Below are positions 2,788 through 36,207 of a DNA stretch of 56,004 bases, piece by piece. This DNA comes from a virus (taxonomy: Duplodnaviria > Heunggongvirae > Uroviricota > Caudoviricetes). The notes beneath the pieces were generated by a model. It saw nothing but the letters and a program-made list of their open reading frames with translations, was not told where the DNA came from and did no database searches. The position numbers were made by a program, and so were the translations under genes. Position 1 is the first letter of the stretch; each line of letters opens with the position of its first letter. The stretch lies in IMG/VR virus record IMGVR_UViG_2744054632_000003; one strand, given 5' to 3'.

Positions 2788-5168
2788 TAGATTGACTCCC
2801 CCACCTGAGCATCAGTCAATGCCTTGTGCCATATTCTAAAATTCCTGACATGACCAAATAAATGACGTAACCCGGCTGTAGTCTGGCCTCCAATACGGAT
2901 AATTGCGGTGTTCTGAATACAGGACCATGTGGTTTTTGTTTCGCTGGATATATGCCCGTTACTTACTGAGCACGTAGACTGCTCTGACTTTACACGCATC
3001 CCCATAACCATTTTTTCAAGCGATGCGTTTTCGTTTACCCGTCTGTTAGCTCCTCCAATATCGCAATAAGGAAATCCGTCGTAATCTGTTGAACGACCGA
3101 AGCCAAGAATAATAGCCGCTCCGGTTTGATGACCGCCGGTATCAAAAACACGTGGCGCTGCATTTGGCGTTTTATACCAGTTCTTATGTACCTCACAAAG
3201 AACCGTAAAAGGAAGATTATAAAGATTATTCTTAATTGGAACTGTAACTATATCGCTTGCGCGGGTCGCCGCCGTCGCTCCTGATATAATAAAAGATGAT
3301 ACACAAGGCCCATCTTCTACTTGTGGGGTGGCCAGATAAATATAGTCACCAGATACGGTTGCCCCGCTCTGCTTAGGAGAATACTGTATCTGAGAGCCTA
3401 TTTTTAACTCCCCATCAATTGCCTGAATTGTTGCCTCTGCAAAAATCCATCCGGTAGCTTCGTCCTTTCTGACTCTCGCTGTAATTCTTGAGGCAGCACC
3501 GCCTGTCATATTAATTTCAAGCGTTTGTGTATCAATATACGCATCACCAAGAAAAGTTGTTGTGCTACCGTCATATTTATCAAACCGGATACGCAACCTT
3601 ACCTGCAGTTCTGTTTTAAAACGACATGAGGTTGTCACGTGTTTATTATCGCCTGAGACATCAACTGACTTTGTTGCAGCAATTGATGCCATATTAATGG
3701 CTGAGGTTTGCCCAATCAGAGAATCGTTGCAGACAAACTTTCCATAGGTAAAACCAAAATTATCCGTCCCTGTTTCGGGCACATCCATATTTGATGATCG
3801 CCCCCAACTTGCAGGGCTTTCCGAATTGAGCATGTAGTTTGTTCTTTGCCCCTCAATAAGCAGGCCATCACGTTCAAATCGTGGCTCGTCAATGGCAGCC
3901 TCTGTCAGCACACCAGATTTGTTAATATAGGTTGCTTTCGATGCACGTTTAAACTTAACAATCTTGTCGCCAGGCATCGTTATTTCATCGTCACCAATAA
4001 CAATTTTTTTATATGATGGCGAAAAGCCCGTAATCATATCCAGCGAATCGTTAAATGGTATCCACACATCAGGCAGCGGCTGTAAGACATATTTATACGG
4101 CTCTGCTGCCTGACTTGCATACTCTCTGGCTGCGTCTTCACTTGCTTTAGCTGCTGTCTGGCTTGCTGCCGATGCTTTCGCCGAGTTCGCCGCTGCAGTC
4201 TCGCTTGTCTTTGCATTGGTTTCACTGGTTTTTGCTGCTTTTTGACTGTTGGCTGATGCAGTGGCAGAAGCAGCCGCCGCGCTTGCAGAACCAGCTGCAG
4301 CACTCTCGCTTTGGGCTGCTGCATCCTGACTGTTTTTCGCCGCAGTTTCGCTGGCTTTGGCATTCGTTTCGCTGGTCTTCGCTGCCGTCTGGCTGGACTT
4401 TGCGTTAGTTTCACTCGTCTTCGCAGCTTTCTGGCTGTTAGCCGCAGCAGTTGCTGATCCAGCTGCTGAAGTCGCAGAACCGGCTGCCGCGCTCTCGATT
4501 TGGGCTGCTGCAACCTGGCTGTTTTTTGCCGCAGTTTCACTGGCTTTGGCATTCGTTTCGCTGGTTTTCGCTGCCGTCTGGCTGGACTTTGCGTTGGTTT
4601 CGCTCGTCTTTGCGGCTGTCTCGCTATTTTTCGCGTTGGTTTCTGATTTTTTGGCTGCTGTCGCGGAGTTTGCCGATGCAGTCTTTGAGGTCGCTGCCGC
4701 CTGTGCACTATTAGCTGCATTCGTTTCTGAGGTTTTCGCCGCGTTCTTCGATGATGCCGCTGCAGTTTCGGATTTCTTTGCCGCCGCTGCGCTCTGAGAG
4801 GCGGCTTCAGCGTTGCGTGCCGCTTCTTCCACCATTTCCTCAAAACGACGCAATGCCTCCGGCATGACATCATCTTCCGTCATGGCACCGAGAAAATCAT
4901 TCAGCGTACCTGGTCTGGAGCCTTCATAGACGGTAATGGTCCCGGCATGTGAAGGCGGAAAACCTTCAACCAGCAGGGTGACGCTGTACTGGCCATACTC
5001 AACATCCATGCTGTAACGTCCGGCTTCATCCGGATTTTCAGAAGCCACCGTGTTCACCAGTACCGTGGTGCTGTTACGCTTTGCCTTCAGTTGAATAGTG
5101 CAGTTCTGTATTGGTTTTCCCGCACCATCTTTCAGCACACCTGAGATTTTTACTGCTGCCATATCCAC
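2787..5168 (-). CDS. stf: side tail fibre protein Stf with Ala/Ser/Thr-rich repeat shaft and LamG-like C-terminal domain
   Basis: N-terminus AVKISGVLKDGAGKPIQNCTIQLKAKRNSTT...GRYSMDVEYGQYSV matches lambda Stf; repeats AAKTSETNAKSSQT; C-terminus NFRIWHKALTDAQV resembles lectin/LamG domain ends. Confidence 0.85.
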   Translation of the reverse strand: MDMAAVKISGVLKDGAGKPIQNCTIQLKAKRNSTTVLVNTVASENPDEAGRYSMDVEYGQYSVTLLVEGFPPSHAGTITVYEGSRPGTLNDFLGAMTEDDVMPEALRRFEEMVEEAARNAEAASQSAAAAKKSETAAASSKNAAKTSETNAANSAQAAATSKTASANSATAAKKSETNAKNSETAAKTSETNAKSSQTAAKTSETNAKASETAAKNSQVAAAQIESAAAGSATSAAGSATAAANSQKAAKTSETNAKSSQTAAKTSETNAKASETAAKNSQDAAAQSESAAAGSASAAAASATASANSQKAAKTSETNAKTSETAAANSAKASAASQTAAKASEDAAREYASQAAEPYKYVLQPLPDVWIPFNDSLDMITGFSPSYKKIVIGDDEITMPGDKIVKFKRASKATYINKSGVLTEAAIDEPRFERDGLLIEGQRTNYMLNSESPASWGRSSNMDVPETGTDNFGFTYGKFVCNDSLIGQTSAINMASIAATKSVDVSGDNKHVTTSCRFKTELQVRLRIRFDKYDGSTTTFLGDAYIDTQTLEINMTGGAASRITARVRKDEATGWIFAEATIQAIDGELKIGSQIQYSPKQSGATVSGDYIYLATPQVEDGPCVSSFIISGATAATRASDIVTVPIKNNLYNLPFTVLCEVHKNWYKTPNAAPRVFDTGGHQTGAAIILGFGRSTDYDGFPYCDIGGANRRVNENASLEKMVMGMRVKSEQSTCSVSNGHISSETKTTWSCIQNTAIIRIGGQTTAGLRHLFGHVRNFRIWHKALTDAQVGESI
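4140..4800. repeat. imperfect tandem direct repeats (~190 bp unit) inside stf coding sequence
   Basis: Blocks around 4310-4420 and 4500-4615 are near-identical; encode the repeated TSETNAK motif. Confidence 0.6.
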
Positions 5169-11335: not shown

Positions 11336-11664
11336 CAGTTCACCACCTGTTTAAACTCTGCGCTGAACTCAACACGCAACATACTGACCTGCGACGACCA
11401 TTTTGCGCAGGTCACCTTTATCTGCCTGTAACCATAAGGCGGCGTCCACAGAAAGGCCTTCCAGCCCCCGTGCTCAGCCAGAAACGACTCCAGCGCCGTG
11501 GCCTCCTCACGGGAGACAGACAGCGTCACGCTGTACGTTTTCAGGTCAGCGTTCAGCCCGGCAGGCGCACGCTGGGAATAGCCATCACCAAAGCGCACCT
11601 CCCTGACGGAAGGAGCCGATGTCACATCCATACCGGGTTTCACTTTCCAGCGGAAGGTCTTCAT
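11335..11664 (-). CDS. M: tail tip protein M
   Basis: MKTFRWKVKPGMDVTSAPSVREVRFGDGYSQRAP matches lambda M. Confidence 0.9.
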   Translation of the reverse strand: MKTFRWKVKPGMDVTSAPSVREVRFGDGYSQRAPAGLNADLKTYSVTLSVSREEATALESFLAEHGGWKAFLWTPPYGYRQIKVTCAKWSSQVSMLRVEFSAEFKQVVN

Positions 11665-14221
11665 CGTCCACCTCCGGAGAACAGGCCACCATCACGCATC
11701 TGTGTCTGAATTTCATCACGGGCACCCTTGCGGGCCATGTCATACACCGCCTTCAGAGCGGCCGGACCTATCTGCCCGTTCGTGCCGTCGTTGTTAATCA
11801 CCACATGGTTATTCTGCTCAAACGTCCCGGACGCCTGCGACCGGCTGTCTGCCATGCTGCCCGGTGTACCGACATAACCGCCGGTGGCATAGCCGCGCAT
11901 CAGCCGGTAAAGATTCCCCACGCCAATCCGGCTGGTTGCCTCCTTCGTGAAGACAAACTCACCACGGTGAACAATCCCCGCTGGCTCATATTTGCCGCCG
12001 GTTCCCGTAAATCCTCCGGTTGCAAAATGGAATTTCGCCGCAGCGGCCTGAATGGCTGTACCGCCTGACGCGGATGCGCCGCCACCAACAGCCCCGCCAA
12101 TGGCGCTGCCGATACTCCCGACAATCCCCACCATTGCCTGCTTAAGCAGAATTTCTGTCATCATGGACAGCACGGAACGGGTGAAGCTGCGCCAGTTCTG
12201 CTCACTGCCGGTCAGCATCGCCGCCATATTCTGTGCAATACCATCAAAGGTCTGCGTGGCTGCACTTTTTACCTGCGACATACTGTCCGTGGCGCTCTCT
12301 TCCCACTCACTCCAGCCGGACTTCAGGCCTGCCATCCAGTTCCCGCGAAGCTGGTCTTCAGCCGCCCAGGTCTTTTTCTGCTCTGACATGACGTTATTCA
12401 GCGCCAGCGGATTATCGCCATACTGTTCCTTCAGGCGCTGTTCCGTGGCTTCCCGTTCTGCCTGCCGGTCAGTCAGCCCCCGGCTTTTCGCATCAATGGC
12501 GGCCCGTTTTGCCCGTTGCTGCTGTGCGAATTTATCCGCCTGCTGCGCCAGCGCGTTCAGGCGCTCCTGATACGTAACCTTGTCGCCAAGCGCAGCCAGC
12601 TGGCGTTTGTACTCCAGCGTCTCATCTTTATGCGCCAGCAGGGATTTCTCCTGTGCAGACAGCTGGCGACGTTGCGCCGCCTCCTCCAGTACCGCGAACT
12701 GACTCTCCGCCTTCCACAAATCCCGGCGCTGCTGGCTGATTTTCTCATTTGCTCCGGCATGCTTCTCCAGCGTCCGGAGTTCTGCCTGAAGCGTCAGCAG
12801 AGCAGCATGAGCACTGTCTTCCTGACGATCGCCCGCAGACACCTTCACGCCGGACTGTTTCGGCTTTTTCAGCGTCGCTTCATAATCCTTTTTCGCCGCC
12901 GCCATCAGCGTGTTGTAATCCGCCTGCAGGATTTTCCCGTCTTTCAGTGCCTTGTTCAGTTCTTCCTGACGGGCGGTATATTTCTCCAGCGGCGTCTGCA
13001 GCCGTTCGTAAGCCTTCTGCGCCTCTTCGGTATATTTCAGCCGTGACGCTTCGGTATCGCTCTGCTGCTGCGCATTTTTGTCCTGTTGAGTCTGCTGCTC
13101 AGCCTTCTTTCGGGCGGCTTCAAGCGCAAGACGGGCCTTTTCACGGTCATCCCAGTAACGCGCCCGCGCTTCATCGTTAACAAAATAATCATCCTTGCGC
13201 AGATTCCAGATGTCGTCTGCTTTCTTAAACGCAGCCTCTGCCTTAATCAGCATCTCCTGCGCGGTATCAGGACGACCAATATCCAGCACCGCATCCCACA
13301 TGGATTTGAATGCCCGCGCAGTCCTGTCTGCCCAGGTCTCCAGCGTGCCCATGTTCTCTTTCAGGCGGCGGGTCTGGTCATCAAACCCTTTCGTTGCGGC
13401 CTCGTTCGCCGCCTGCAATGCCCCGGCTTCATCGCCGGAACGCTGCAACTGAGCAACATACGCAATCTGCTCCGCCGTCACGTTATGGAACTGGCGTGCC
13501 ATCGCCGTCAGCCCCGACGTCGGTCTGTGGTCAGCTTCCCGAAGGCTTCAGCGACCTTGTCCACCTCCACGCTGGATGCAGAGGAGAAACGCGCCACACT
13601 CTGGCTGATGGACGCAATCTGAGCCTCACCGCTTACCCCCGCCTTAACCAGTGCGCTGAGTGACTCGCTGGTCTGGTCAAACGTCAGCCCTGCCGCCTGC
13701 CCGGCTCTGGACAGGACCAGCATGCGATCTGCCGTCAGCCCCGACTGATTGCCGGAAAGGACCAGCGTTTTGTTGAAATCGGACAGGGTTGAGTTGCCCT
13801 GATACCAGGCATACGCCAGCGCACCGGTCGCCACCGCCAGCGAGGTGGCCCCGACCATCGGCAGGGTGAGCGCACCGGCAAGCCCCCTGAACATGGGGAT
13901 CATCCCGCCGAAGGAGTCCTTCACCTGACCACCCTGTTGCAGCAGGATCAGCCACGGACTTTGCCCGCCTGCAAGCTGCGTGGCCACGTCAGTGAACTGC
14001 GCAGGCAGCATACGCATGGCAGCTTTATACTGCCCAACGGAAATCCCCGCTTTCTGTGCAGCCAGCGCCTGTCGGCTCAGCGACTGTTCAACGACTGCCG
14101 CTGTTTTTTTCGCATCACTTTCCGTACCGGAAAAATGACGCCTGACTCTGGCCATCTGCTCGTCAAATCTGGCCGCATCCAGACTCAAATCAACGACCAG
14201 ATCGCCTACCGGTTCAGCCAT
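11661..14221 (-). pseudogene. H: tape measure protein H, split into two ORFs by a frameshift near 13503-13510
   Basis: 13508..14221 matches H N-terminus (MAEPVGDLVVDLSLDAARFDEQ...KLTTD) then reads RRRG-stop; 11661..13502 continues H (MARQFHNV...); junction gaccgacgtcgg versus lambda gacccgacgtcgg (recalled). Confidence 0.8.
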
Positions 14222-17602: not shown

Positions 17603-18379
17603 TTACGCCAGTTGTACAGACACGAACTCATCAGGATCAGCCAGCAGCATCAGCGGTGCTGACTGAATCATGGTGAACTCACGCGCCGGATCGCCGGTGG
17701 TCACCCAGTTTTTCGGGTAACGGGCAGAGGCGTTAATGCCTTCGCGCTGTGCGTCCGCATCCTGAATGCAGCCATAGGTGCGCAGACCGCGTGCCTGAGT
17801 GTTCCCCAGCACCATCGTGTTGTCCGGCAGGAAGTTCTTTTTGACGCCGTTTTCCACGTACTGTCCGGAATACACGACGATGGCCACATCGCCATACATC
17901 CCCTTGTAGGACACCGCTTTGCCCAGGTCTTTCACCGCTGTCTCCAGCTCGGAATGAGAGCCGCGACGAGTATCCAGCTTCTCCTTGACGGCTTTGAAGG
18001 AACGGAACAGCGCCCAGCCTTTCGGATCAAACACGATGATATTCACCACTCCGCTGGCGTTCAGCGCGTAGGCTTCGATATCGTCGGTCGGGTCATACGT
18101 GGACTTGTCACGCTTGCTCCACTCCGTGCCGCCGGACTGCGTGATGTTGTTGGCCGCACTGCGGCCCATATCCACCTCAACCGGATCGAAAGCTTCACCG
18201 GTCATGGTGTATTTGCCCTTAAGCACGGCAGAAACTGCCTGCATCTCTTCGACCTGGGCAATGGCCAGCTCTTCGTCACGCATGTTCTGCATAATGATGC
18301 GACGGCGGCGGTAAGCCGGGTCCGCCAGATTCTGCGGATCTTCATCCGGCAGGCGACGCAGGGTCATCTGCGGATTCAC
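17603..18379 (-). pseudogene. E: major capsid protein E, C-terminal ~260 codons, separated from its N-terminal part by the island
   Basis: VNPQMTLRRLPDEDPQNLADPAYRRRRIIMQNMRDEEL...EFVSVQLA matches lambda E residues ~83-341; frame has a stop immediately upstream. Confidence 0.9.
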
Positions 18380-18520
18380 CTCATGCTTCGGCTACATGAG
18401 TCAAATATGAAAGGATCTGAATGATTTTTAATGAAATAAATGGCTCTCTCTATCAAAATACAGCTAAAAAGCAATACACGTAGCAATACAGCGCTTCGCA
18501 AAGGTATGTCACTATATCTA

Positions 18521-19486
18521 CTAGTGCCAACCAGAATACGAATATCTTTGCTTTGCTTCTTCTGGGCTCATACCCACTAGTAAAGATACTAATTCAAAGT
18601 CAGGTTGTGGAATTGGAATCAATGCAGCCAAATATGCTGGCTTATTGAGAACAATTGTTGATAATCTAGCTTTATTCACCTTAGATAACTCAATATTACT
18701 TTCCGCTACCTTCGGGAATTCCATAATAAATGAATCAATTTCCCTTATGAGATAATCGATCAACGCCACTATACTTTCTGTCAAATCAATATATTTTGAC
18801 AACTCACTAGCATCAATTTCTTTCTTTATTTCATCCAATTTAATTTCAAACACTGGCTTGTCTTTACTGGCAATATTAGACAAACGTTTCTTTAAATCTG
18901 AATCAAGCTGATTCCTGACAATTAAACTTTTCAAAACAAAATTATAATTAAACAAAAAAGCATCAATTCGAGCAATATTCCTCCATGAGTTTCCAATTTC
19001 TTCATCTGACGGCATAATAAGTTCATGTTTTAGTATCTTGTACTTAATAAAAAAAACAAACCTCTCAAATAGAGTTTTATTAGCTGTGGGTATCTTTTTT
19101 ATAAATGAAAGACGGCTAATATCGAAATTCACCTCCCCGGCGTTAAATAAAAGTTCATTTATTGCCAGCGCTCTAAATATTGGATTTCTAGATCTCAAAC
19201 CAATATAACTACTTTTAATTGCCACAAGTGTATTTATCATCTGAAAAGAAACCATCATAAGCGTATTAGCAGAATTAAATTTCTCCGTTTCTATTTTAAT
19301 CTTCTCCTGCCTATTATTGATACAATAAGCAGTTAAGCCTCCCATAAGCGCCGATAAAAAAGATAATGCAATAGGGAATACATAATCTTTTGTATAATCA
19401 ACATCTGCTTTCAACATTAGTATTGCTTTAGCAATCAAAACTGCATCAGGGGTCATGTTAGAGCCGTCATTAAAAATTAAACACAA
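18521..19486 (-). CDS. AT-rich membrane-associated protein of unknown function (island cargo; candidate defence gene)
   Basis: Ile/Lys/Asn-rich 321-aa ORF with N-terminal hydrophobic segments; low GC versus flanks; sits at island end next to attL. Confidence 0.5.
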   Translation of the reverse strand: MCLIFNDGSNMTPDAVLIAKAILMLKADVDYTKDYVFPIALSFLSALMGGLTAYCINNRQEKIKIETEKFNSANTLMMVSFQMINTLVAIKSSYIGLRSRNPIFRALAINELLFNAGEVNFDISRLSFIKKIPTANKTLFERFVFFIKYKILKHELIMPSDEEIGNSWRNIARIDAFLFNYNFVLKSLIVRNQLDSDLKKRLSNIASKDKPVFEIKLDEIKKEIDASELSKYIDLTESIVALIDYLIREIDSFIMEFPKVAESNIELSKVNKARLSTIVLNKPAYLAALIPIPQPDFELVSLLVGMSPEEAKQRYSYSGWH

Positions 19487-20149
19487 TACCCATAAAATAT
19501 AACAGCTTATTGTTTAGAAAAGCAATATCATACACTCTATGATAAGCGTAATATCTTACAGGCATGGTGTGTTACGACACTTAATTAAACGTAATTTGCT
19601 AAAATTTTACACACAGAATCACACCAGGCTCTAACTCTCCTTTCATTACAATTGTAAGCATACAATTATCCTACCAGAACTTTATTGTTAAGCTCTCCCT
19701 TTTGAGCCCATCCCATAATGAATTGACGAAAGAACCGTATCTGTGGAGTAATCATTTCTGCGCGGTTCTATGTCGAAGACAAAATATGGTATGCGCATCT
19801 AGTCAGAGGGAAAGCAATTTTTCAGGGAAATATCATCTCTACATGGTTAAAACAACCAGAAGAAGTTATCAAGCAAGTTGGGTATGAAGATTTTCCTATA
19901 ATAGTAACGAAACGGGTTTCACCTGAGCGGTTGTGTTCGATCCGCCACAATACGCATAGGATGCCCTGTAATCCGTATTCTGCTTACTCAACAGCTTACC
20001 AGCAGGACTCGTAAGGCTGTTGCGATAGTGCAGAAGTAGGCCACGACCATAAAGTGAAGCCAGTGGCGCGTTATCGACTACTTTAGTGTAGAGCCTGATT
20101 TCAACGCAAGCGTGAGAGTTTTTTCTGGCGATAGGCCGTGACAAACAGC

Positions 20150-20330
20150 AACAAAATCAGAGAAAGGAAACGGCAGAGGCCAAAAAGCCCGTTTTCAGCG
20201 CCAGTCATTTCCTTTCTTTTCAGGGGGGATTTTAAATAAAAACATAAAGTTACGGCGAAGAAGAACGGAAACGCCTTAAACCGGAAAATTTCCATAAATA
20301 GAGAAAAACTGCGCGCCTGACGCCCCGTAA
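20150..20330. other. island cos site: cosB-like region and divergent cosN
   Basis: About 85 percent identical and colinear with prophage cos region 34950-35130; at the cosN position island has GCCTGACGCCCC where the prophage has AGGTCGCCGCCC. Confidence 0.65.
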
Positions 20331-20381
20331 CGTTCTGGATCGCCGGAAAGGACCCGCCAGCCAGAGCGGGCCCTAATTTCA

Positions 20382-20765
20382 TCAACCAATCAGCTTATAG
20401 CGACCATCCCGTGCATTGCGGCGTACACGCTCAATCTTGAGGCATAGCGCCGCATCTGGCTTTTTTGGGACAGGTACGCGGCAATATTCAGAAGCGCGAG
20501 GAATATTATTTATCCAGTCGATCACTTCACTTAAATACCAGGCCTTACGCCCTTCCGTAACCTGCACACGCTCCGGGAACTCTCCACTAGCCTCAAGGTT
20601 TAGCAGTGTACGACGACTCAGGGTTGTAATTTCCATCACCTGATTCATATCAACAAGGCGCTCGCTTAAACACATTTTGTCAGCGATAGCTTTTAATTCC
20701 TCTACAGCTGGATTCGGGTACATCATTTCGGCAATTGGCTTAAGGTCATTGTAATCATTCTGCAT
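20382..20765 (-). CDS. AlpA-like HTH protein adjacent to island cos (candidate packaging-redirection or regulatory protein)
   Basis: LSRRTLLNLEASGEFPERVQVTEGRKAWYLSEVIDWI resembles the AlpA/excisionase HTH fold; gene ends immediately at the island cos. Confidence 0.5.
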   Translation of the reverse strand: MQNDYNDLKPIAEMMYPNPAVEELKAIADKMCLSERLVDMNQVMEITTLSRRTLLNLEASGEFPERVQVTEGRKAWYLSEVIDWINNIPRASEYCRVPVPKKPDAALCLKIERVRRNARDGRYKLIG

Positions 20766-20776
20766 TGTATCCCCCT

Positions 20777-21118
20777 TTACACACGAGCCAGCGGCTGAAC
20801 AGAAATACCTGAGCCAACAAACGCTGCAACCTTTACTGACAGTTCTTTAACAGACTCAGGCCAGTTCAGAGCATCAACATTTAAGACACCTGTCTTATAG
20901 ACCTGAGCCTGTGTTTTTTTCGCGGTGTCGATTTGTACAGCGGAAACATAAACCGCTTTACCTACGCTCGAACCATCCCATACCACCAGTGCACCTGTTG
21001 CATCTTCCTGCATCAGTGGCGTAAATGCAGGAATTACCCCTTTATTAGCTGAAAATATCCCCAGCGTAGTCACCAGTGCTTCAGTGCCAGCCATGAGTTC
21101 AGTGTAATGAGTAGCCAT
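20777..21118 (-). CDS. head decoration protein D homologue (island-encoded)
   Basis: TPLMQEDATGALVVWDGSSVGKAVYVSAVQ...VYKTGVLNVDALNWPES aligns with lambda [32 protein letters not shown]...[17 protein letters not shown]. Confidence 0.7.
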   Translation of the reverse strand: MATHYTELMAGTEALVTTLGIFSANKGVIPAFTPLMQEDATGALVVWDGSSVGKAVYVSAVQIDTAKKTQAQVYKTGVLNVDALNWPESVKELSVKVAAFVGSGISVQPLARV

Positions 21119-21127
21119 TGCTCCCCC

Positions 21128-22168
21128 TTAGCCAATGCGAACGGTAACAAAACGATTGATGCGGGCCGGTATTGGCTGTGGTGCTGAATGTGTCTGCACA
21201 TATTCAATAGCCGGATCACCAGGCACAATATAGTTTTTCGGTGCAAGTTCGGCTTTAGTCAGCCCCATTCGGATTAGCTCCGGATCCTGAATACCGCCAT
21301 AGGCGACAATCCCCTGAAGAGCCGTATTGCCAAGCACCATCAAATCAGGATCAAGGAAATGTTTTTCAGTTCCGTCCTCGTCGGTATAACGCCCGCTGTA
21401 AACAACAATCGCAACATCGCCCATATATCCTTTAAAACTCACCGAATCACCAAGGTCTTTAAGGGCCGTTTCCAGTTCGGAATTAGAACCACGACGGGTA
21501 TCCAGAGCCTCTTTTATCGCTCTGAATGAACGGTATTTCTTCCATACATTACCGCCCATAATGATGATATTAGTGACGCCCTCACTAAATTCTGCGTAGC
21601 TCTCAATATCATCATTTGGATCAAAAGTTTCTTTATCCTTACCTGACCACTCAGTACCGCCAGACTGAGTGATGATATTTTGTGGTTTAATATTCCAGTC
21701 CAGCTCATAACGTTCAATACCATCGCCCTCAATGATATTTTTCCCCGTTGTGATTGCCTGAACGGCAAGCCATTCAATACGTGCACGAATAGCTTTAGCT
21801 TGATTTACAATCGCCTGTTTAACTTTAATATTACGCGCCCCAAAAGCATTGTATTGCTCAGGTGATACACCAGCAGGGCGCACAGCTAACTTATTTGGAT
21901 CAATGCTGCTTTTCGGCTTCATATAGCCTGGACGAATTGTTTTTGATTCGTACCCTTCGTCACGTGAAACTTTACTACCCACCATAGGAGAACAAAACGC
22001 TGCAATTGGGATATTTGGATCGTCGATTGTATCAAGAATAATATCGCGCGATCCAAACATTACCGAGCGAGTAAAAAACAAACTGGTAAACAACGCATTT
22101 AGTTGTTTTTGTACATCTACAGCATTAACCACCTGTACAAGCTGGGTAGGCGAATATAAATCAACCAT
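21128..22168 (-). CDS. major capsid protein E homologue (island-encoded, divergent)
   Basis: ITQSGGTEWSGKDKETFDPNDDIESYAEF...RSFRAIKEALDTRRGSNSELETALKDLG...VAIVVYSG colinear with lambda E; start taken at MVDLYSPTQLVQ with AAGAGG 6 nt upstream. Confidence 0.8.
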   Translation of the reverse strand: MVDLYSPTQLVQVVNAVDVQKQLNALFTSLFFTRSVMFGSRDIILDTIDDPNIPIAAFCSPMVGSKVSRDEGYESKTIRPGYMKPKSSIDPNKLAVRPAGVSPEQYNAFGARNIKVKQAIVNQAKAIRARIEWLAVQAITTGKNIIEGDGIERYELDWNIKPQNIITQSGGTEWSGKDKETFDPNDDIESYAEFSEGVTNIIIMGGNVWKKYRSFRAIKEALDTRRGSNSELETALKDLGDSVSFKGYMGDVAIVVYSGRYTDEDGTEKHFLDPDLMVLGNTALQGIVAYGGIQDPELIRMGLTKAELAPKNYIVPGDPAIEYVQTHSAPQPIPARINRFVTVRIG

Positions 22169-22385
22169 ACGCATCCTCTTTGCATTCATTAAAAATAATT
22201 GTGGATATATGCTATCACCGATATTTGTCATGCGAACACATGCAACCGAGTGCAATGTTGTATAAAGTTTTGGGGTGACAACTTCAGTGCGAACAATTAG
22301 TGTTAATATATTCACTCCCTTTGGTCGGGATTTATGTAGCATGCCGGAAAATTTATTTTTTCCGGCCTTTTTTTATTGGCAATAT

Positions 22386-22835
22386 TTAAAATGGGATATC
22401 ATCTCCCCATTGCTCATTATCTCCCACTGGTGGCTGGCTTCCTTGCTGATCTGCCTGTTGTTTTGCTCTGTTCAGTGCGTCAGTAGCCTGCCCCTGTTGG
22501 CCTTTTTTGCCGCCCGGTCGCACCGATCGCGCACTGATTACGCTGTCTGCGATAACCTGCCAGCCCTGCCGCGTTTCGCCGTTCTGTCCAGTCCACTGGC
22601 TCATCTGCATGTTACCCGCCACGCTCAGGAGTTCGCATTTGTGATGCTTTGCCAGCGCGTCGGCTTGTCTGCCAAACGCCAGGACAGATAACCACATCGT
22701 CGCCTGACCGTCATCCGACTGACTGCAAGGCAGTGATACCGCCATACGCGCCAGCGTCATGGGGGTGCCCTTGCTGGTCTGTTTTGTCTGCGGGTCGTCC
22801 ACCAACCGCCCGTAAACTGATATTTGCGCCGTCAT
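22386..22835 (-). CDS. single-stranded DNA-binding protein-like
   Basis: OB-fold-like N-terminus and Gly/Gln-rich tail ending in acidic DDIPF, the SSB C-terminal signature. Confidence 0.65.
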   Translation of the reverse strand: MTAQISVYGRLVDDPQTKQTSKGTPMTLARMAVSLPCSQSDDGQATMWLSVLAFGRQADALAKHHKCELLSVAGNMQMSQWTGQNGETRQGWQVIADSVISARSVRPGGKKGQQGQATDALNRAKQQADQQGSQPPVGDNEQWGDDIPF

Positions 22836-23077
22836 GCTGCCTGCTCTCCGGACTTAATATTGATTGTTGTCACTTCCTCCGCTTCAGCAATCTCCCGTTC
22901 GGTCAGAGTGGCAAAGTTTGCAGCCGCCGTTGTCATGAATGCGCTAATCAGTTCGGGATGTGCTTTCGCGTATCCTTCCCCGGCGTTGCGGTCGATGATT
23001 TTTATCGACACCCTTAACCAGTGTTCAGTCAAATCAAGGGCGTGCGATTGTGATTTTTTTGTGTGCTTCGCTGTCAT
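22832..23077 (-). CDS. hypothetical protein (81 aa)
   Basis: ORF overlapping start of SSB-like gene by 4 nt; no recognised family. Confidence 0.35.
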   Translation of the reverse strand: MTAKHTKKSQSHALDLTEHWLRVSIKIIDRNAGEGYAKAHPELISAFMTTAAANFATLTEREIAEAEEVTTINIKSGEQAA

Positions 23078-23128
23078 AGGCTTTATCTCACAGCAGTAAA
23101 TTAAAATTTTTGCGTTTTAACCCTTCAC

Positions 23129-23351
23129 CTGTTCACCTTTTGATATTTTCTCTTTTAATTCATAATGTTAATGGGTGAACAGTTTCACAAAAACTATTCA
23201 CCAACTGTTCACCACTGTTCACCCTTGAAGCTCAATAAACAATCAAAAAGGTGAACAGTGAATAGTTTGGTGAACAGTTCATAAATAACTGTTCACCCTA
23301 TAATACACTGATATAAAAGATATTTATGACAGGGTGAACAGTGGTGAACAG
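23129..23351. repeat. iteron cluster, probable island replication origin
   Basis: At least 10 copies of GGTGAACAG or its complement CTGTTCACC in both orientations in an AT-rich stretch just downstream of the primase-helicase gene. Confidence 0.7.
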
Positions 23352-23364
23352 TTATTCCATAAGT

Positions 23365-25185
23365 TTAATTTTTGCTATCGTCATTAGTGACCGATACACA
23401 TGATGGCATCCAGTCCTCTGATTCCTCCGTCAGTGTCACGTTTGAACGCAAACCGTGCTTCGTTTTCCGTTTCATATACTCCCTGCCATATTCCGCCATT
23501 GCCCCCGGCATATCTTTACCGAAGCGCGTCAGTGTTACAGGTTTACCAAACCCATGTGCCCTCATATAAGCCAGATAGGCATGATAGAGATACCTGCGTG
23601 GGCTGAATGGCACAATTTCAGCATTACCCACTAATAGGCCATCACACATTACCGATGCCATGAGATAGCCGCAGAAGTCCACCAGCGAATCCCCCTCTCG
23701 CTTTATCGCCAGTGCTTCTTCAGATTTCTGCTGCTCATATAACAGGCGTCTGGCTTCGTCCTGATCAGCAAACCGTGTAAGCAGATGACGAATCACTACC
23801 GCCAGCTCACCTTCTATTTTTTCCGCCAGCATCGAATCGCGTTCGTTCTCCGGTACAACTTCCGAAAAATTGAATATCACCCGACGACGTGAGATCCCCC
23901 CGCTGCGGTCACTGAATGACATGGCGTTATTGTTAACCGCCAGTACTACTGCCGGAATACGCGTTGAATAGGGGGCTTTGTGTTTCGGGTCAATTGCCAC
24001 CTTGTCACCGCCTGTAATGGCCTTAATCCCTGCCCCATCACCAGCGTAGCGGGTCATATCCGGCATGATAATCAGCGAAAAGCCAACCACTAACGCACGT
24101 TCCCTTGCATCTTCCAGCGCCTTCATGCTTGCTGATACTGTATTAGCCTTACCCGCCAGCATGGTGCAAATCTCCGCCATCACACTTTTACCACTTCCCC
24201 CCGGCCCTGTTACCTCAATGAATAACTGCCAGTCGTACCGGTTCGCCAGCACCATGAATAATGCCGCCAGTACGCGATCTGCCTTGCGGTCATTCTCAGC
24301 CACCGAACGGCGCAACCACTTCCAGAAATTCGGCGCATGTGTTGCCAGCGTTTCCCCCTCTGCTGGTGGGCTGAAAGGTAATTCACTGGCAATTAACAAC
24401 CAGTCGTTTTTGTTATGCTCCCGAAAATTACCAGTTCTGGTATCAAATACCCCGTTACTGAATCCAATCAGGTTACGGGCAGTATTCCCCATTACAGGCA
24501 AACTTAACTTCATGGTATCTACCGCCGATTTAATGGCGTTCTGCGAATAGCTGATCTCCGCATCAATGAAAATCTGCGCCATAGCACGCTGTAACTCTTT
24601 ATCCTGAACCGGCTCCCATACAACGCCGTTGTAATGATGAACGGTGTCAGAGTCGGCATTGATTGCCAGTTCGCCGCCGTAATGTGCAAGGAGAACTTCA
24701 CCGCGCTGGCTGGCCCCCATCTGATTCAACGCCAAAGATGAAGCACGCTCGTCATTTTTGCGCTCTGCCTTCTTCACTGGCAGTTCAATCACCAGACTTT
24801 CCCCATGCTCCGCTTCAGCTTTTAGGCCGACAAGGCGCGGAGTCCAGTCTTCAGGCTCTCGATCAACAAAGCTACGGTAACAACGTGCTTCCTTTACGCC
24901 TGCAATAGCAAGTAATGTCGCAACCTTCGTCAGACTTTTCTCTGCAATCTTTCCGGCACGATAAACACGCACATAATGACGGCCTTCATCGATAATTTGC
25001 ATATCATCCAGGTTTTCCAGTTGTTCCGTACCCAGAATGACTGGTGGTGTATCATCTGCTGCAATATGCTTACCTGCCCATTCATTCCATTCTTTTGCAT
25101 GGCTCCAGGCATCACTGCCAGCAAAAATGATGACTTCCGTCATTTTGTCGCGCGGTTGGTATTTTAAGTTCGGAGCACGTTTCAT
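23365..25185 (-). CDS. primase-helicase (P4 alpha / D5-like SF3 helicase family)
   Basis: Walker A GPGGSGKS, followed by conserved SF3 helicase-like region; GGAGGT 5 nt upstream of ATG at 25185. Confidence 0.8.
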   Translation of the reverse strand: MKRAPNLKYQPRDKMTEVIIFAGSDAWSHAKEWNEWAGKHIAADDTPPVILGTEQLENLDDMQIIDEGRHYVRVYRAGKIAEKSLTKVATLLAIAGVKEARCYRSFVDREPEDWTPRLVGLKAEAEHGESLVIELPVKKAERKNDERASSLALNQMGASQRGEVLLAHYGGELAINADSDTVHHYNGVVWEPVQDKELQRAMAQIFIDAEISYSQNAIKSAVDTMKLSLPVMGNTARNLIGFSNGVFDTRTGNFREHNKNDWLLIASELPFSPPAEGETLATHAPNFWKWLRRSVAENDRKADRVLAALFMVLANRYDWQLFIEVTGPGGSGKSVMAEICTMLAGKANTVSASMKALEDARERALVVGFSLIIMPDMTRYAGDGAGIKAITGGDKVAIDPKHKAPYSTRIPAVVLAVNNNAMSFSDRSGGISRRRVIFNFSEVVPENERDSMLAEKIEGELAVVIRHLLTRFADQDEARRLLYEQQKSEEALAIKREGDSLVDFCGYLMASVMCDGLLVGNAEIVPFSPRRYLYHAYLAYMRAHGFGKPVTLTRFGKDMPGAMAEYGREYMKRKTKHGLRSNVTLTEESEDWMPSCVSVTNDDSKN

Positions 25186-25469
25186 TTGTTACCTCCGGCA
25201 ACTAACATTGCCCGAATTTTACGGATATAGCCTGCGGCACGCCTCTGATTATCTGTCTTGCAATTTTTTACCAGAATGAAATCTCTTTCGAACTGCTGAC
25301 GCGGCATAACACATTCAAAATCATAACCATCACGCAAATAAGAGACACGACGATCATCAACCGAAATAATCTTTACCCGATAGCCATAGCTGTCTTTGAA
25401 AATATCCCCAAGGCTGATTTTTGAATGAGTTTGACCGCTGGCAATAAAGCCAGAAAATTTATTTTTCAT
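25182..25469 (-). CDS. hypothetical protein (95 aa)
   Basis: ORF translationally coupled to primase gene; no recognised family. Confidence 0.4.
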   Translation of the reverse strand: MKNKFSGFIASGQTHSKISLGDIFKDSYGYRVKIISVDDRRVSYLRDGYDFECVMPRQQFERDFILVKNCKTDNQRRAAGYIRKIRAMLVAGGNK

Positions 25470-25472
25470 TTT

Positions 25473-25697
25473 TTATTCTCCGGTATAGCTCTGGTCGTGT
25501 ATTTTTATAGCTTCATCCAGCTCTTTGATGACAGGATCAAGTAACGTAATTAACGCTCCAGCTAAATTAGCATCCCGTTCATCGTGTTCCGCATTTGTTG
25601 TCCCATCAAGCCAGGTTGATAAGATTTCTCGCATATTTTTGCCACAAACGAGCGCGTTTTCAGCATGTGTCAGCACTTTAAAATAAAGATCATTCAT
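25473..25697 (-). CDS. hypothetical protein (74 aa)
   Basis: ORF in same operon; no recognised family. Confidence 0.35.
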   Translation of the reverse strand: MNDLYFKVLTHAENALVCGKNMREILSTWLDGTTNAEHDERDANLAGALITLLDPVIKELDEAIKIHDQSYTGE

Positions 25698-26055
25698 GGC
25701 ACACCTCCTGACGAATACGGGCGGCGAATATCATCACGCAGCCAGTTGGGGATTGCTGGCGGGCTTCCTGTTCGCTGGTGGCCTCGATGGTAATCACGCG
25801 CGGTTGTGCCGTACTCAGGGCGATAAAACGCCAGATGAAATTGTTTTCACATTTCTGAATAAACAGCGTGTTTTCTTCCCGCCCTTTCCAGAAAGCCGCA
25901 GTATAGCCCATCTCCTTAACCATCTTGCGCGCATCAACCAGCGTGTCAGCGGCTACATGTACCGTAGTTGCTCCATCTGCTATGCGATCGCGATGTAGCG
26001 CCAGAAAGATGTATATAAATTTAGGGTGAGTTTGGGTATGCTGTGTTCCAGCCAT
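25690..26055 (-). CDS. hypothetical protein (121 aa)
   Basis: First gene of leftward island operon; no recognised family. Confidence 0.35.
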   Translation of the reverse strand: MAGTQHTQTHPKFIYIFLALHRDRIADGATTVHVAADTLVDARKMVKEMGYTAAFWKGREENTLFIQKCENNFIWRFIALSTAQPRVITIEATSEQEARQQSPTGCVMIFAARIRQEVCHE

Positions 26056-26085
26056 AGTCGTTACTCCAGTTAACGGTTTGTGGTT

Positions 26086-26190
26086 AGACGCCTAGGTGTG
26101 TTGCGAGCACCCTAGGGCGTTGTTTATAGGTATAACATCATGTTAATGTGTGTACCTATTCAACACTGATGCTAAGCAATAGGTACACAC
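26086..26190. promoter_or_regulatory. divergent promoter/operator region with two palindromes
   Basis: Perfect 15-bp inverted repeat ATGTGTGTACCTATT / AATAGGTACACACAT and imperfect palindrome CGCCTAGG...CCTAGGGCG between divergent operons. Confidence 0.5.
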
Positions 26191-26385
26191 ATGTCAACTA
26201 CAATTCAAAGAGATAAGCAGCCAAAAGGAGCCGGCAAAGCCCCTGCGTTTCAGATCCGAATCAATCCTGAACTCAAAGAACAGATGGCTGAATCAGCAGC
26301 TCAGGAAGGAATGAGCTTGGCCAATTGGATTAAAGAATTAGTTCGTGCTGAGCTTCGCCGTAAAGGTATAGAACCTAAAGGCTAA
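26191..26385 (+). CDS. ribbon-helix-helix (Arc/CopG-like) DNA-binding protein
   Basis: 64 aa; FQIRINPELKEQMAESAAQEGMSLANWIKELVRAEL fits the RHH beta-alpha-alpha pattern. Confidence 0.55.
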   Translation: MSTTIQRDKQPKGAGKAPAFQIRINPELKEQMAESAAQEGMSLANWIKELVRAELRRKGIEPKG

Positions 26386-26417
26386 TTTTTTTAATTTTTA
26401 TTGAATAGGATATTCAA

Positions 26418-27101
26418 ATGACTCCAACTCCTGACGATGCTGTATTCACTGCATCAAACATTATAAATTTCTTCGTGGCACTCGGGACTTGCACAGCAGT
26501 GTTAGTTGCATTAATTGCTAAAAAGCAATCATCTTTTGAATCAACATTTTCTCTCATGTTATCTCAACATAACAATGCTCTAAATGATCTTAGAAAAAAA
26601 TCAAATTACTCAGAGTTAATTAATAAAATGATGAATGGATTGGTTTCTTTAAAAGACACTAATACACTGATGCACAATCATGATGCTGTTTTTGGAAGCT
26701 ACTTCAGAATATTATATCATCTATTGAAGTTCATTGATGAAAATGCTGGATACCATCCCTTTGATCTAGATCGTAAAAAAACCTATACAAGCCTTGTCCG
26801 TGCACATCTAGATAATGAAATAACGTATTTACTTGCAATAAACTGTGCACATGCTAACAGTGAAAATCAATATCATTTTTATAAAACATTGATTGAGCGC
26901 TATGCCATGTTAGAACATTTAATCTTGGATAAATCAACGCTATTGGACTATACCCCTCCAGATTTAAATGAATATCAAAAAGATTTGCGCGTAGCAACAA
27001 TAGTGGTTACCGATGATATAAAAACTATTTTTAACGAGATTGCAACAGTATATTATAAGAGCGCATTTGGAAAAAACCCTGATTTAAAAAATTTCCTGTA
27101 A
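26418..27101 (+). CDS. AT-rich membrane-anchored protein of unknown function (island cargo; candidate defence gene)
   Basis: N-terminal TM helix IINFFVALGTCTAVLVALIA; AT-rich codons; co-oriented with RHH gene. Confidence 0.45.
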   Translation: MTPTPDDAVFTASNIINFFVALGTCTAVLVALIAKKQSSFESTFSLMLSQHNNALNDLRKKSNYSELINKMMNGLVSLKDTNTLMHNHDAVFGSYFRILYHLLKFIDENAGYHPFDLDRKKTYTSLVRAHLDNEITYLLAINCAHANSENQYHFYKTLIERYAMLEHLILDKSTLLDYTPPDLNEYQKDLRVATIVVTDDIKTIFNEIATVYYKSAFGKNPDLKNFL

Positions 27102-27127
27102 GATATAGGGAGGAATACCTCCCTAAC

Positions 27128-27358
27128 TTACCATTCACCTCTTATCCAAGCTTGAATCTCAGAGAGTCTATAAGCCACCGCCGTAGATCCGATTTTGATT
27201 CGCTTGGGGAATTTCCCCTCCTTTTCAAGCTTCCAGCGTGTGCTGTTCGCAAGAGTGGTTAGCTCCCGACATTCTTTCTCACGGATCATTCGGTCAATGT
27301 TAGGAATGTACTCCAGACCCTTTTTATCAACAATTGCCATTTTTTTCATGTTAACCAA
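27128..27358 (-). CDS. alpA: AlpA family transcriptional regulator / excisionase-like
   Basis: Small HTH protein immediately downstream of integrase; LEYIPNIDRMIREKECRELTTLANSTRWKLEKEGKFP. Confidence 0.7.
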   Translation of the reverse strand: MVNMKKMAIVDKKGLEYIPNIDRMIREKECRELTTLANSTRWKLEKEGKFPKRIKIGSTAVAYRLSEIQAWIRGEW

Positions 27359-28586
27359 CCTTTTGTTTGAGGATTGTCACTTTTGAATCAGCACCTGCGA
27401 TGCTATTGAGATATGTAGTCCAGAGTTCCAGAGCATCCAGTTTTTTAGCCATAAACTTACTCCGGTTGTAAACACCTGCCACGCCAGGTAGCGCATGGCC
27501 TAACAGTTGTTCTACTACATAAAATTCAACACCGAGATCACTTAGATGAGTAGATAGCGTTCTTCTAAGGTCGTGTAGTGACCATTGTTTTTCATGGCCC
27601 AAACGTTTACCGATTTTCCCCCCAATCTTGCTTACGCTTTCTCTAATTCGCAGACTTCCCAGCACATAACCAGTATGTTTTGTCTCTTCGTGAACATCCG
27701 TTACCCACTGTCGTAGAATTTCAGGTACTGGTCTGACGATTTCAACACCAGTTTTTGAGTGATCTTTTGGTACAGTCCAAACCCAACTTTCGAGATCCCA
27801 TTCGCTCCATTCTGATAATCGGGCTTCACTCATTCGACATCCAAATACTGTACAAAGCACAAACATTTTTCGCGTGTATTCAGACATTAGTTTTAAATCA
27901 GGCTCGACAAAAATTGCCTTCCAGAGCTGGCCGAGTTCGGCTTCATCCAGAACCCGATCCCGCTTACCTGCAATCTGCCCCACATCACTCATGCGCAAAT
28001 CCTTTAAAGCATCACACGTCGCGTACTGGCGTACCCGACAAAAACGAAGAGCTAATTTAGTGTCAGAAAAAACATACGCCGCCATAACTGGTGCATTACG
28101 TTTAATTCGGTCAAAACAGTCCAGCCATTCATATAGGTGAGTGTCATTTACGGGCAAATGACCGATATAGGGAAAGATATGCTTTCGAAATCTGCCAAGC
28201 GTTACAGCATGAGTTTTACGACGCACCTTACAGTAATTTTCATACCAGTAATTTAGTGCATCCTCCACTGTGACCGGCTTTAAGCGTTCTTCAGCCTGAA
28301 TCTTAATCTGGATACGCGGATCACGTTTGTCAGCCAACCAACCACGGCACTCGTCGCGCTTTTCCCTTGCCTGTTTGAGTGACATATCAGGATATTTACC
28401 CAACGTTAGCCAGACCGGAGCAGCCCGGCCACCTGCTAACCTGTAGAAGAAAACAAAGCTCACAGCCCCTTTAGTACTCACACGAATAGAAAGCCCCTTT
28501 CCATCAGCAATGGTGATCTGCTTTTCTCTGGGTTTCCCCAGATATCCTTTAAGCGCTTTGTCGCTCAGTTTGTTCTCGCCAGCCAT
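27351..28586 (-). CDS. int: tyrosine integrase (P4-type)
   Basis: Conserved HDLRRT and LLGH motifs of tyrosine recombinases; start taken at MAGENKL; adjacent to attR. Confidence 0.85.
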   Translation of the reverse strand: MAGENKLSDKALKGYLGKPREKQITIADGKGLSIRVSTKGAVSFVFFYRLAGGRAAPVWLTLGKYPDMSLKQAREKRDECRGWLADKRDPRIQIKIQAEERLKPVTVEDALNYWYENYCKVRRKTHAVTLGRFRKHIFPYIGHLPVNDTHLYEWLDCFDRIKRNAPVMAAYVFSDTKLALRFCRVRQYATCDALKDLRMSDVGQIAGKRDRVLDEAELGQLWKAIFVEPDLKLMSEYTRKMFVLCTVFGCRMSEARLSEWSEWDLESWVWTVPKDHSKTGVEIVRPVPEILRQWVTDVHEETKHTGYVLGSLRIRESVSKIGGKIGKRLGHEKQWSLHDLRRTLSTHLSDLGVEFYVVEQLLGHALPGVAGVYNRSKFMAKKLDALELWTTYLNSIAGADSKVTILKQKVG

Positions 28587-28748
28587 TTTTAGCCCCAAAA
28601 AGCAATACAAGCTGCAATACAGAGATGATTGCAACACACAGATAACGAGGAAAATTCAGTGAAAGCGCCAGATAAACTTATTCTTTATTATCAAAAGATT
28701 AAGTGTAAAAACCAGCAACTACACGAAAGCCTCAGAAAGCCATGCTAA

Positions 28749-28994
28749 GTGCTTCGGCTTGACATATCCCGGCGTAAATTCAGAGGTGGAGCCGCCACGG
28801 GAGCGGATAACCTCACCGGAAACAATCGGCGAAACGTACAGCGCCATGTTTACCAGCCCCGGAATTTGTGAGAGATAGACTTTCTCCGTGGTGAAGGGAT
28901 AGCTCTCACGGAAAAAGAGACGCAGAAACAGCGGATCAAACTTAAATTTCTGCTCATTTGCCGCCAGCAGCTGGGCGGTTGTGTACATCGACAT
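28749..28994 (-). pseudogene. E: major capsid protein E, N-terminal 82 codons, interrupted by island insertion
   Basis: MSMYTTAQLLAANEQKFKFDPLFLRLFFRESYPFTTEKVYLSQIPGLVNMALYVSPIVSGEVIRSRGGSTSEFTPGYVKPKH then reads LAWLSEAFV-stop into island DNA. Confidence 0.9.

Positions 28995-30691: not shown

Positions 30692-30711
<20 letters not shown>
29392..30711 (-). CDS. C: capsid assembly protease C (S49 family), Nu3 scaffold nested in frame
   Basis: TAELRNLPHIASMAFNEPLMLEPAYARVFFCALAGQ matches lambda C; likely GTG start. Confidence 0.85.
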
Positions 30712-34391
<3,680 letters not shown>

Positions 34392-34417
<26 letters not shown>

Positions 34418-34937
34418 TCAGCAACCCCGGTATCAGTTCATCCAGCGCGGCTGCTTTGTTCATGGCTTTGATGATATCCCGTTTCAGGAAATCAACATGT
34501 CGGTTTTCCAGTTCCGGAAAACGCCGCTGCACCGACAGGGGGATCCCGTCGAGAATACTGGCAATTTCACCTGCGATACGCGACAGCACGAAAGTACAGA
34601 ATGCGGTTTCCACCACTTCAGCGGAGTCTCTGGCATTTTTCAGCTCCTGTGCGTCGGCCTGCGCACGCGTAAGTCGATGGCGTTCGTACTCAATAGTCCC
34701 TGGCTGGAGATCTGTCTCGCTGGCCTGCAGCAGTTCTTCAACCTCCCGGCGCAGCTTTTCGTTCTCAATTTCAGCATCCCTTTCGGCATACCATTTTATG
34801 ACGGCGGCAGAGTCATAAAGCACCTCATTACCCTTGCCACCGCCTCGCAGAACGGGCATTCCCTGTTCCTGCCAGTTCTGAATGGTACGGATACTCGCAC
34901 CGAAAATGTCAGCCAGCTGCTTTTTGTTGACTTCCAT
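34392..34937 (-). CDS. nu1: terminase small subunit Nu1
   Basis: MEVNKKQLADIFGASIRTIQNWQEQGMPVLRGGGKGNEVLYD matches lambda Nu1. Confidence 0.95.
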
Positions 34938-34939
34938 TG

Positions 34940-35126
34940 CTCATTCCACGGACAAAAACAGAGAAAGGAAACGACAGAGGCCAAAAAGCTCGCTTTCAGC
35001 ACCTGTCGTTTCCTTTCTTTTCAGGGGGTGTTTTAAATAAAAACATTAGGTTACGGCGAAGAAGAACGGAAACACCTTAAACCGGAAAATTTTCATAAAT
35101 AGCGAAAACCCGCGAGGTCGCCGCCC
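34940..35126. other. prophage cos site (cosB and cosN)
   Basis: Reverse complement matches the recalled lambda left end GGGCGGCGACCTCGCGGGTTTTCGCTATTTATGAAAATTTTCCGGTTTAAGGCG; 12-nt cohesive-end sequence at 35115-35126. Confidence 0.85.
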
Positions 35127-35325
35127 CGTAACCTGTCGGATCGCCGGAAAGGACCCGCAAAATGATAATAATTATCATCTACATGTCACAACGTGCATCT
35201 ACGCCATCAAACCACGTCAAATAATCAATTATGACGCAGGTATCGTATTAATTGATCTGCATCAACTTAACGTAAAAACAACTTCAGACAATACAAATCA
35301 GCGACACTGAATACGGGGCAACCTC

Positions 35326-36176: not shown

Positions 36177-36207
36177 TTGCATGAGTTGCCCATCGATATG
36201 GGCAGCT

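Follow-up and report, generated by a model that had tools for sequence, protein, structure and literature searches.

A lambdoid prophage with a helper-embedded PICI in its capsid gene

The window, a 56,004-nucleotide stretch of Caudoviricetes DNA (IMG/VR record IMGVR_UViG_2744054632_000003), contains a lambdoid prophage with its late operon on the minus strand. The operon runs through Nu1, A, W, B, C, D and a 5' fragment of E; an island then intervenes, and the operon resumes with the 3' fragment of E, followed by FI, FII, Z, U, V, G, T, H, M, L, K, I and J. The helper TerS, a Nu1/nohD homologue (34392-34937, minus strand; EC-10 annotation and ORF list), is encoded directly downstream of the prophage cos site, and the helper TerL, a gpA homologue (32492-34417, minus strand), shares 99% identity with TerL proteins from phages that have other cosN alleles. 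DLP12-type genes (emrE, ybcK, rusA, nohD) are present in the prophage, which has an identical locus in EC-10. A lipoprotein gene, iss (bor-like; increased serum survival; ∼35884-36177, plus strand), is flanked by the lysis genes on one side and by the prophage cos on the other, and in the tail-fibre region a 189-nt unit is tandemly duplicated at 4191-4568 (81% identity). Relative to EC-10, the window has single-base homopolymer deletions at 13522, 31540, 10637 and 26091, which break up two genes: tape-measure gene H, into ORFs 11661-13502 and 13508-14221, and portal gene B, into ORFs 30692-31534 and 31531-32292. These deletions are probably assembly errors; were they real, the helper would be defective.

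The island spans 10.4 kb (18384-28759, minus strand) and is bounded by 10-bp att blocks, TGCTTCGGCT, at 18384-18393 and 28750-28759. It interrupts the capsid gene, a lambda E homologue, at about codon 80, leaving a 5' fragment (28749-28994, minus strand; annotated in EC-10 as a partial major capsid protein) and a 3' fragment (17603-18391, minus strand; EC-10 annotation). An empty site in IMG/VR (locus L159), where the equivalent of window position 28750 is joined straight to 18391, confirms these borders. The gene order starts with a tyrosine integrase (27351-28586, minus strand; annotation and Pfam) and alpA (27128-27358), continues with AbiC-like and YlcI-like genes (both on the plus strand), Icd-like, DUF4222, primase and SSB genes, and ends with an E-like major capsid gene (21128-22168, minus strand; Pfam Phage_cap_E and annotation), a D-like head decoration gene (20777-21118, minus strand; Pfam HDPD and annotation), a gene for a 127-residue AlpA-family HTH protein (20382-20765, minus strand; Pfam Phage_AlpA; PHROG 2790; PDB 8c3t AlpA, E=2e-9), cos and a low-GC gene. 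The HTH gene stops 27 nt ahead of cosQ, a position that it holds in all ∼80 sister islands. Beyond cos, cosB is followed by an unannotated ORF of 82 residues (19896-20144, minus strand; ORF list) and by the low-GC (0.35) cargo gene of 311 residues (18521-19456, minus strand), which falls in PHROG 21267 (function not assigned there) and has no match in Pfam or PADLOC. The AbiC-like putative abortive-infection gene (26418-27101, plus strand), on the strand opposite to the core island genes, is probably defence cargo.

The core island genes lie on the minus strand, co-oriented with the late operon in the manner that defines helper-embedded PICIs (HE-PICIs), and the gene zones of a PICI are all present: integrase and AlpA, an accessory/Bro zone, primase and SSB, and a late zone with captured late genes. 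The island is an HE-PICI of the published '11capE' type, its insertion site being the lambda-E-like capsid gene of the prophage. It is nearly identical to its counterparts in E. coli EC-10 and 24AR0376 (100.0% reported, one 1-nt gap), and the EC-10 composite is located at the tRNA-Arg/intD (DLP12) site.

A total of 201 elements have been described at this capsid-gene site (Tommasini, Mageeney & Williams, NAR Genom Bioinform 2023, PMC10111431; bioRxiv 2022). The island resembles one of them, Eco567.11capE in the prophage 50icd of E. coli NRG857c (PMC10111431), in its size (∼10-11 kb), in its tyrosine integrase, AlpA, primase, SSB and own capsid gene, in its co-oriented insertion at ∼codon 80 of an E-like capsid gene, in its 10-bp att block, in lacking terS and in having a cos-like block that is ∼90% identical to that of its helper. 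The two differ in the site of the helper, which is icd for 50icd and, in the identical EC-10 locus, tRNA-Arg/intD here; the cargo after cos may also differ. The same paper noted, without dissecting it, a 258-bp sequence at the lambda cos position that is 90% identical between 11capE and its helper, and makes no mention of a cosN difference (PMC10111431). Virions of 50icd, the model helper, were not detected (Tommasini et al.).

The island carries a complete lambda-type cos site

An ungapped direct repeat of 207 nt links the island (20151-20357) to the prophage (34952-35158), the two copies being 88% identical and spaced 14,801 nt apart (repeat search, with a concordant MAFFT alignment). They differ by 25 mismatches over the 207 positions and by no indels, a resemblance therefore far above chance. 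An earlier reading of the sequence alone (hereafter, the sequence-only reading) had described 20150-20330 as colinear with 34950-35130 at about 85% identity; the colinearity holds and is ungapped, but the identity is somewhat higher, and the block extends past 20330 to 20357, taking in cosQ. The repeat has sharp edges, lying exactly at cosQ (GGGTCCT) on one side and just past R1, before the Nu1 start, on the other. These edges are the functional limits of lambda cos, and the resemblance, tested against generic AT-rich sequence, is not of that kind.

Both copies are on the minus strand and each forms a complete lambda-type site with cosQ, cosN, R3, I1, R2 and R1. Elements were placed by alignment with the cos sites of lambda and phage 21; the phage 21 record labels R4/cosQ, cosN, I2, R3, I1, R2 and R1, and its R4 box is used for terminal cos cleavage. 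In the island (20151-20357, minus strand), the packaging-termination element cosQ (20349-20355, minus strand; lambda positions -30 to -24) matches lambda, phage 21 and the prophage exactly. It is followed by the 12-bp cosN overhang, 5'-GGGCGTCAGGCG-3' (20314-20325, minus strand), where the flanking CG dinucleotides are kept; the predicted top-strand nick follows ..TTACG and the predicted bottom-strand nick precedes CGCAGT (..TTACG|GGGCGTCAGGCG|CGCAGT..). The cosB portion comprises R3 (CGTTTCCGTTCT, 20262-20273, minus strand; 12/12 to the lambda consensus, lambda bp 53-64), the core of the IHF site I1 (TAACTTTATGTT, 20241-20252, minus strand; aligned to the annotated I1 of phage 21 and its lambda equivalent), the inverted R2 (AGAAAGGAAATG, 20206-20217, minus strand; 11/12) and R1 (CGTTTCCTTTCT, 20161-20172, minus strand; 12/12). 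The Nu1-binding repeats are thus retained, as the sequence-only reading had it, and the single R2 mismatch lies outside the TerS-contact segment (the equivalent of R3 bp 55-63). The corresponding elements of the prophage cos (34952-35158, minus strand) are cosQ at 35150-35156, cosN at 35115-35126 (GGGCGGCGACCT), R3 at 35063-35074, I1 at 35042-35053, R2 at 35007-35018 and R1 at 34962-34973.

The layout is that of a lambda-type cos throughout: cosQ lies ∼30 bp upstream of the top-strand nick, the left half of cosN reads GGGCG between CG flanks, and cosB has the order R3-I1-R2-R1 with R2 inverted. The distance from cosN to R3, which, like R3 itself, is critical (Feiss et al. 2022, PMC9026076), is the same in the island, the prophage and lambda, with no indel, so that R3 falls at bp 53-64. 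Compared with bacteriophage lambda, the island site has the same elements in the same order, orientation and spacing, with identical cosQ, bp 1-5, CG flanks and R-box cores; it differs at bp 6, 8, 9, 10 and 12 of the overhang and in what follows cosB, which is the 82-residue ORF and the cargo gene, not Nu1. All lambda-type elements and spacings are kept. The island block is a second cos site, as had been proposed, and a complete one, apparently belonging to a cos-packaged satellite. A scan of the island against Rfam returned no family at the gathering score, and a promoter and terminator scan around cos found nothing above shuffle expectation.

The overhang differs mainly in the mutation-tolerant half of cosN

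The prophage overhang, GGGCGGCGACCT, is that of lambda, and the island overhang, GGGCGTCAGGCG, departs from it at bp 6, 8, 9, 10 and 12 (on the plus strand, CGCCTGACGCCC at 20314-20325 in the island and AGGTCGCCGCCC at 35115-35126 in the prophage). The mismatches between the two cos copies concentrate here, in agreement with the sequence-only reading: 5 of the 25 fall within overhang bp 6-12 (hypergeometric P=3e-4), and 10 of the 25 within the wider interval from bp -12 to +17 (P=5e-4). The core does differ between the copies, although the island 12-mer first quoted was one base out of register. Four of the five overhang changes are in the right half (bp 8, 9, 10 and 12); the fifth, a G to T change at bp 6, borders it just outside bp 7-12, at the edge of the sensitive left half, at a position that does vary among phage-context cos sites in IMG/VR. 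The island retains bp 1-5, G2 and C11, both CG flanks, cosQ and the R-box contact segments.

This pattern of change and retention is familiar from the lambda-like phages, where cohesive-end differences at bp 7-12 are common (Feiss et al. 2015, PMC4669245). Departures from lambda are found at bp 9 and 12 in both N15 and phiD326 and at bp 8, 9 and 11 in Gifsy-1 (PMC4669245); the overhang of mEp213/LLS, GGGCGGCGCGCT, is a further natural variant (for the variants together: PMC4669245; Vahanian et al. 2017; PMC12315714). Experimentally, mutations at bp 7-12 had minimal effect, and the G2C change lowered yield about tenfold, whereas the symmetric C11G change had no cost, an asymmetry attributed to the anchoring of TerL by TerS at the nearby cosB (PMC4669245). 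Lambda TerL cuts the lambda and N15 cosN equally well, showing no cosN specificity, and the CG dinucleotides around both nicks, together with cosQ, are conserved (PMC4669245). TerL is described as 'not highly' sequence-specific and as requiring TerS-cosB anchoring (PMC9026076).

Variation in IMG/VR follows the same lines. Among phage-type cos haplotypes (74 unique), there is no variation at bp 1-5 and almost none at bp 13-49, but six of the seven sites in bp 6-12 vary. An R3-anchored sample of 118 cos sites included 84 in phage context, with GGGCGGCGACCT at 76, GGGCGGAAGGCG at six and GGGCGGCGACCG and GGGCGACGACCT at one each; GGGCGGCGTCCG was among the further alleles in a separate first scan. 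The lambda allele thus accounts for ∼90% of sampled phage cos sites, and the ∼10% with non-lambda overhangs stand beside terminases that are mostly 98-100% identical to that of the helper; nearly all of the 84 sites adjoin Nu1 and gpA genes whose products are 98-100% identical to those of the window. Vahanian et al. reportedly surveyed cosN variants in 2017.

The island allele shares with the natural variants of lambda-like phages an essentially right-half pattern of change, intact nick flanks and cosQ, and probable compatibility with a lambda-type TerL; it differs from those of N15, phiD326 and Gifsy-1 in its larger number of changes (five), in having one at bp 6 and in being mostly satellite-borne. 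It reads as a natural cosN allele altered mainly in the tolerant half, an ordinary and already described arrangement. The sequence-only reading had called the altered core unexpected, which does not hold: the right half is naturally variable and mutation-tolerant, since R3-bound TerS positions TerL, and four of the five changes sit there. Neither bp 1-5 nor the CG flanks are altered, and cosQ, the R boxes and the distance from cosN to R3 are likewise intact. Nor is there support for the altered core as a sign of a changed mode of cleavage.

The island overhang occurs beside near-identical terminases

In IMG/VR, the island allele was found at 57 loci, comprising ∼50 islands and 4-5 phage contexts (loci L125, L159, L170 and probably L134). 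At the phage-context loci, a lambda-type right flank and cosB follow the 12-mer. In L125, L159 and L170, GGGCGTCAGGCG is succeeded by Nu1 (99% identical) and gpA (99-100% identical to that of the helper); L125 has phage lysis genes upstream of cos, and L159 is an uninterrupted helper-like prophage. The same 12-mer therefore occurs with near-identical terminases, and no special nuclease is needed for the island allele. The natural variant GGGCGGAAGGCG is found on a separate 46.7-kb replicon of E. coli PEC1013 (locus L281, NZ_CP165740.1 43840-43914), annotated as a plasmid and carrying a lambdoid phage genome, whose TerL is identical to that of the window at 636 of 641 residues.

In phages, the exact 12-mer is rare, occurring at none of the 84 phage-context sites of the unbiased sample and at the 4-5 loci in all of IMG/VR. 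The phages that have it might have gained it from satellites. In a BLAST of deposited phage genomes (50,697 records), the best match to the 61 nt surrounding the island cosN was 83.6% identical, the context itself being unmatched, and the same context is present in 121 of 5,426 complete E. coli genomes. A search of species-representative genomes with the 18-mer TACGGGGCGTCAGGCGCG gave 38 matches, all in unrelated high-GC taxa (such as Streptomyces and MAGs), and these were set aside as chance. In complete E. coli genomes, no recombinant joining the island flank to the lambda 12-mer and lambda cosB was seen, the best full-length match (96.3%) being of the window type in a comparison that gives identities only, with alleles unreadable.

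Proposed packaging by the helper terminase

We infer cleavage and packaging from the observed anatomy, spacing, conservation and co-occurrence of allele and terminase: with a probability of roughly 0.8, the island block at 20151-20357 is a functional PICI packaging site cut by the helper terminase, its overhang being a natural cosN allele. On the sequence evidence, the island cos is very probably functional. Upon induction, the island would excise, restoring gene E, and replicate. The helper TerS (Nu1) would then bind R3, R2 and R1 of the island, with IHF at I1, and set the helper TerL (gpA) ∼47 bp away, where staggered nicks beside the CG dinucleotides would leave the 12-nt 5' overhang GGGCGTCAGGCG. 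Because cosB-bound TerS holds TerL in place, nicking in the right half does not depend on sequence, and normal cutting of the island cosN by the helper terminase is expected. Termination at the next island cos would be aided by cosQ, and the two ends of the island would still be complementary to each other.

The island has no terS, and given its helper-type R boxes, direct recognition by the helper Nu1/gpA is most likely as the simplest mechanism. It thereby differs from the cos-packaged PICIs typified by EcCICFT073 (Fillol-Salom et al. 2019, PMC6739421; PMC9026076), which are likewise Gram-negative elements with a lambda-type cos, dependence on helper TerS/TerL, an int-alpA-pri backbone and, often, their own capsid gene. 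EcCICFT073 keeps cosQ and cosN and has a foreign cosB, lacking R boxes, which is read by a heterocomplex of TerS and Rpp, a mimic of the TerS DBD whose gene lies downstream of cos as terS does, whereas the island shows the reverse, with cosB kept and cosN changed. Crystal structures of RppC and RppC-TerS have been reported (PMC6739421). Comparison of the small island proteins with the PDB, which we assume to include those structures, gave no Rpp or Nu1 match at E<=1 at the sequence level. AlpA, the Nu1 DBD and Rpp have a common winged-helix fold, so agreement in fold could not tell them apart. Rpp-dependent packaging was rejected at the sequence level, with no Rpp-like protein detected and a helper-like cosB carrying R3, R2 and R1; the 127-residue AlpA-like protein encoded beside cos could take part in packaging. 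In contrast to the Rpp-type PICIs, this family keeps cosB and would thus be packageable by an unmodified helper TerS, with only the sticky end altered.

The locus would then be a textbook cos-packaged HE-PICI, its odd core apparently lying in a part of cosN that the terminase does not read, which mostly closes the question raised by the altered overhang. A different helper, with a TerL that specifically cuts GGGCGTCAGGCG and with the resident prophage not acting as packaging helper, would accommodate the few prophages that have exactly this 12-mer and the absence of the island cosN context from the 50,697 deposited phage records. This is highly improbable: the Nu1 and gpA of those prophages are 99-100% identical to the resident's, leaving no distinct TerL, lambda-type TerL has no right-half cosN specificity (PMC4669245), and the island is embedded in the resident late operon and co-oriented with it. 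It is also very unlikely that captured phage DNA has left the island with a decaying cos relic that no longer functions. Its 12% divergence from the helper cos, the one R2 mismatch and the five overhang changes could suggest decay, yet every functional element and spacing is kept, homology stops exactly at the functional borders, and the substitutions avoid positions known to matter. Furthermore, the 12-mer is invariant in at least 25 island haplotypes with variable flanks, and the position of the module is fixed in ∼80 islands.

Distribution of the overhang among sister islands

Sister islands in IMG/VR (L283-L362) have in common a capsid-decoration-HTH-cosQ-cosN module, to which different cosB modules have been swapped. 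The cosB types are lambda-type (in some islands with a TerS of their own, at 70% identity to Nu1, and in others without), a diverged lambda-like type, and an unrelated 'GGTGGTGG' cosB accompanied by a TerS that is 37% identical to Nu1. A sample keyed on the neighbouring HTH protein (IMG/VR, n=78), and so unbiased for cosN, ties the overhang to the cosB type: GGGCGTCAGGCG is present in 42 of 42 islands with a lambda-type or lambda-like cosB, and of the 36 islands with the unrelated cosB, 27 have the lambda allele, seven the variant and two other overhangs. Allele-biased scans had indicated that no island has the lambda allele; this is refuted by the 27 of 78 islands in the HTH-keyed sample, all of which have the different cosB. 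Both the element, with its cos-like sequence, and right-half cosN variation are known from the literature; what is modestly new is the bias of this 12-mer towards satellites.

One reading of this distribution is that satellites sharing the helper cosB keep, by selection, an overhang unable to anneal with helper ends. The helper terminase would still cut, but mixed-cos molecules, or co-resident helper and satellite DNAs, could not anneal; as an added effect, the divergence would lower recombination between the two direct cos repeats of the composite. The uniform GGGCGTCAGGCG of the lambda-type and lambda-like cosB islands fits this, as does the prevalence of the lambda allele both among phage cos sites (∼90%) and among unrelated-cosB islands with their own TerS (27/36). 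One island haplotype matches the cosB of a phage with the lambda 12-mer at every position of bp 36-177 (100% identity), yet has retained its own 12-mer, which places a crossover just right of the overhang. Predicted duplex energies are ∼-9 kcal/mol for lambda paired with the island overhang, ∼-19 for matched ends and ∼-15 for lambda/N15. Even the two-base lambda/N15 mismatch lowers viable yield about fourfold (PMC4669245), and by these predictions mixed-cos hybrid molecules should cyclise poorly.

Selection for incompatible ends is nevertheless unlikely as the explanation. Helper and island alleles differ in seven of seven two-site IMG/VR contigs and in the window, but eight differing pairs of eight are unsurprising where ∼90% of phages have the lambda allele (0.9^8 = 0.43). 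The islands form one close lineage (95-100% identity in the upstream module), and the association may therefore go back to a single ancestral event or to a few; only ∼40 bp separate cosN from R3, a tight linkage. No clear fitness gain for the satellite was identified, and the same allele is present in a few phages. Tight linkage and shared descent explain the pairing of allele and cosB equally well. If the pairing is selected, cohesive-end incompatibility would be a cheap means of separating satellite and helper genomes, and a new, purely DNA-encoded one, operating both in the two-cos composite and in co-infection. The overhang as a natural, tolerated cosN allele at a site cut by the helper terminase remains the preferred reading. 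In the sister islands, the slot after cos is filled either by TerS genes or by cargo, annotated in the E. coli matches as TIR, DUF262, DUF2971, restriction endonuclease and abortive-infection genes.
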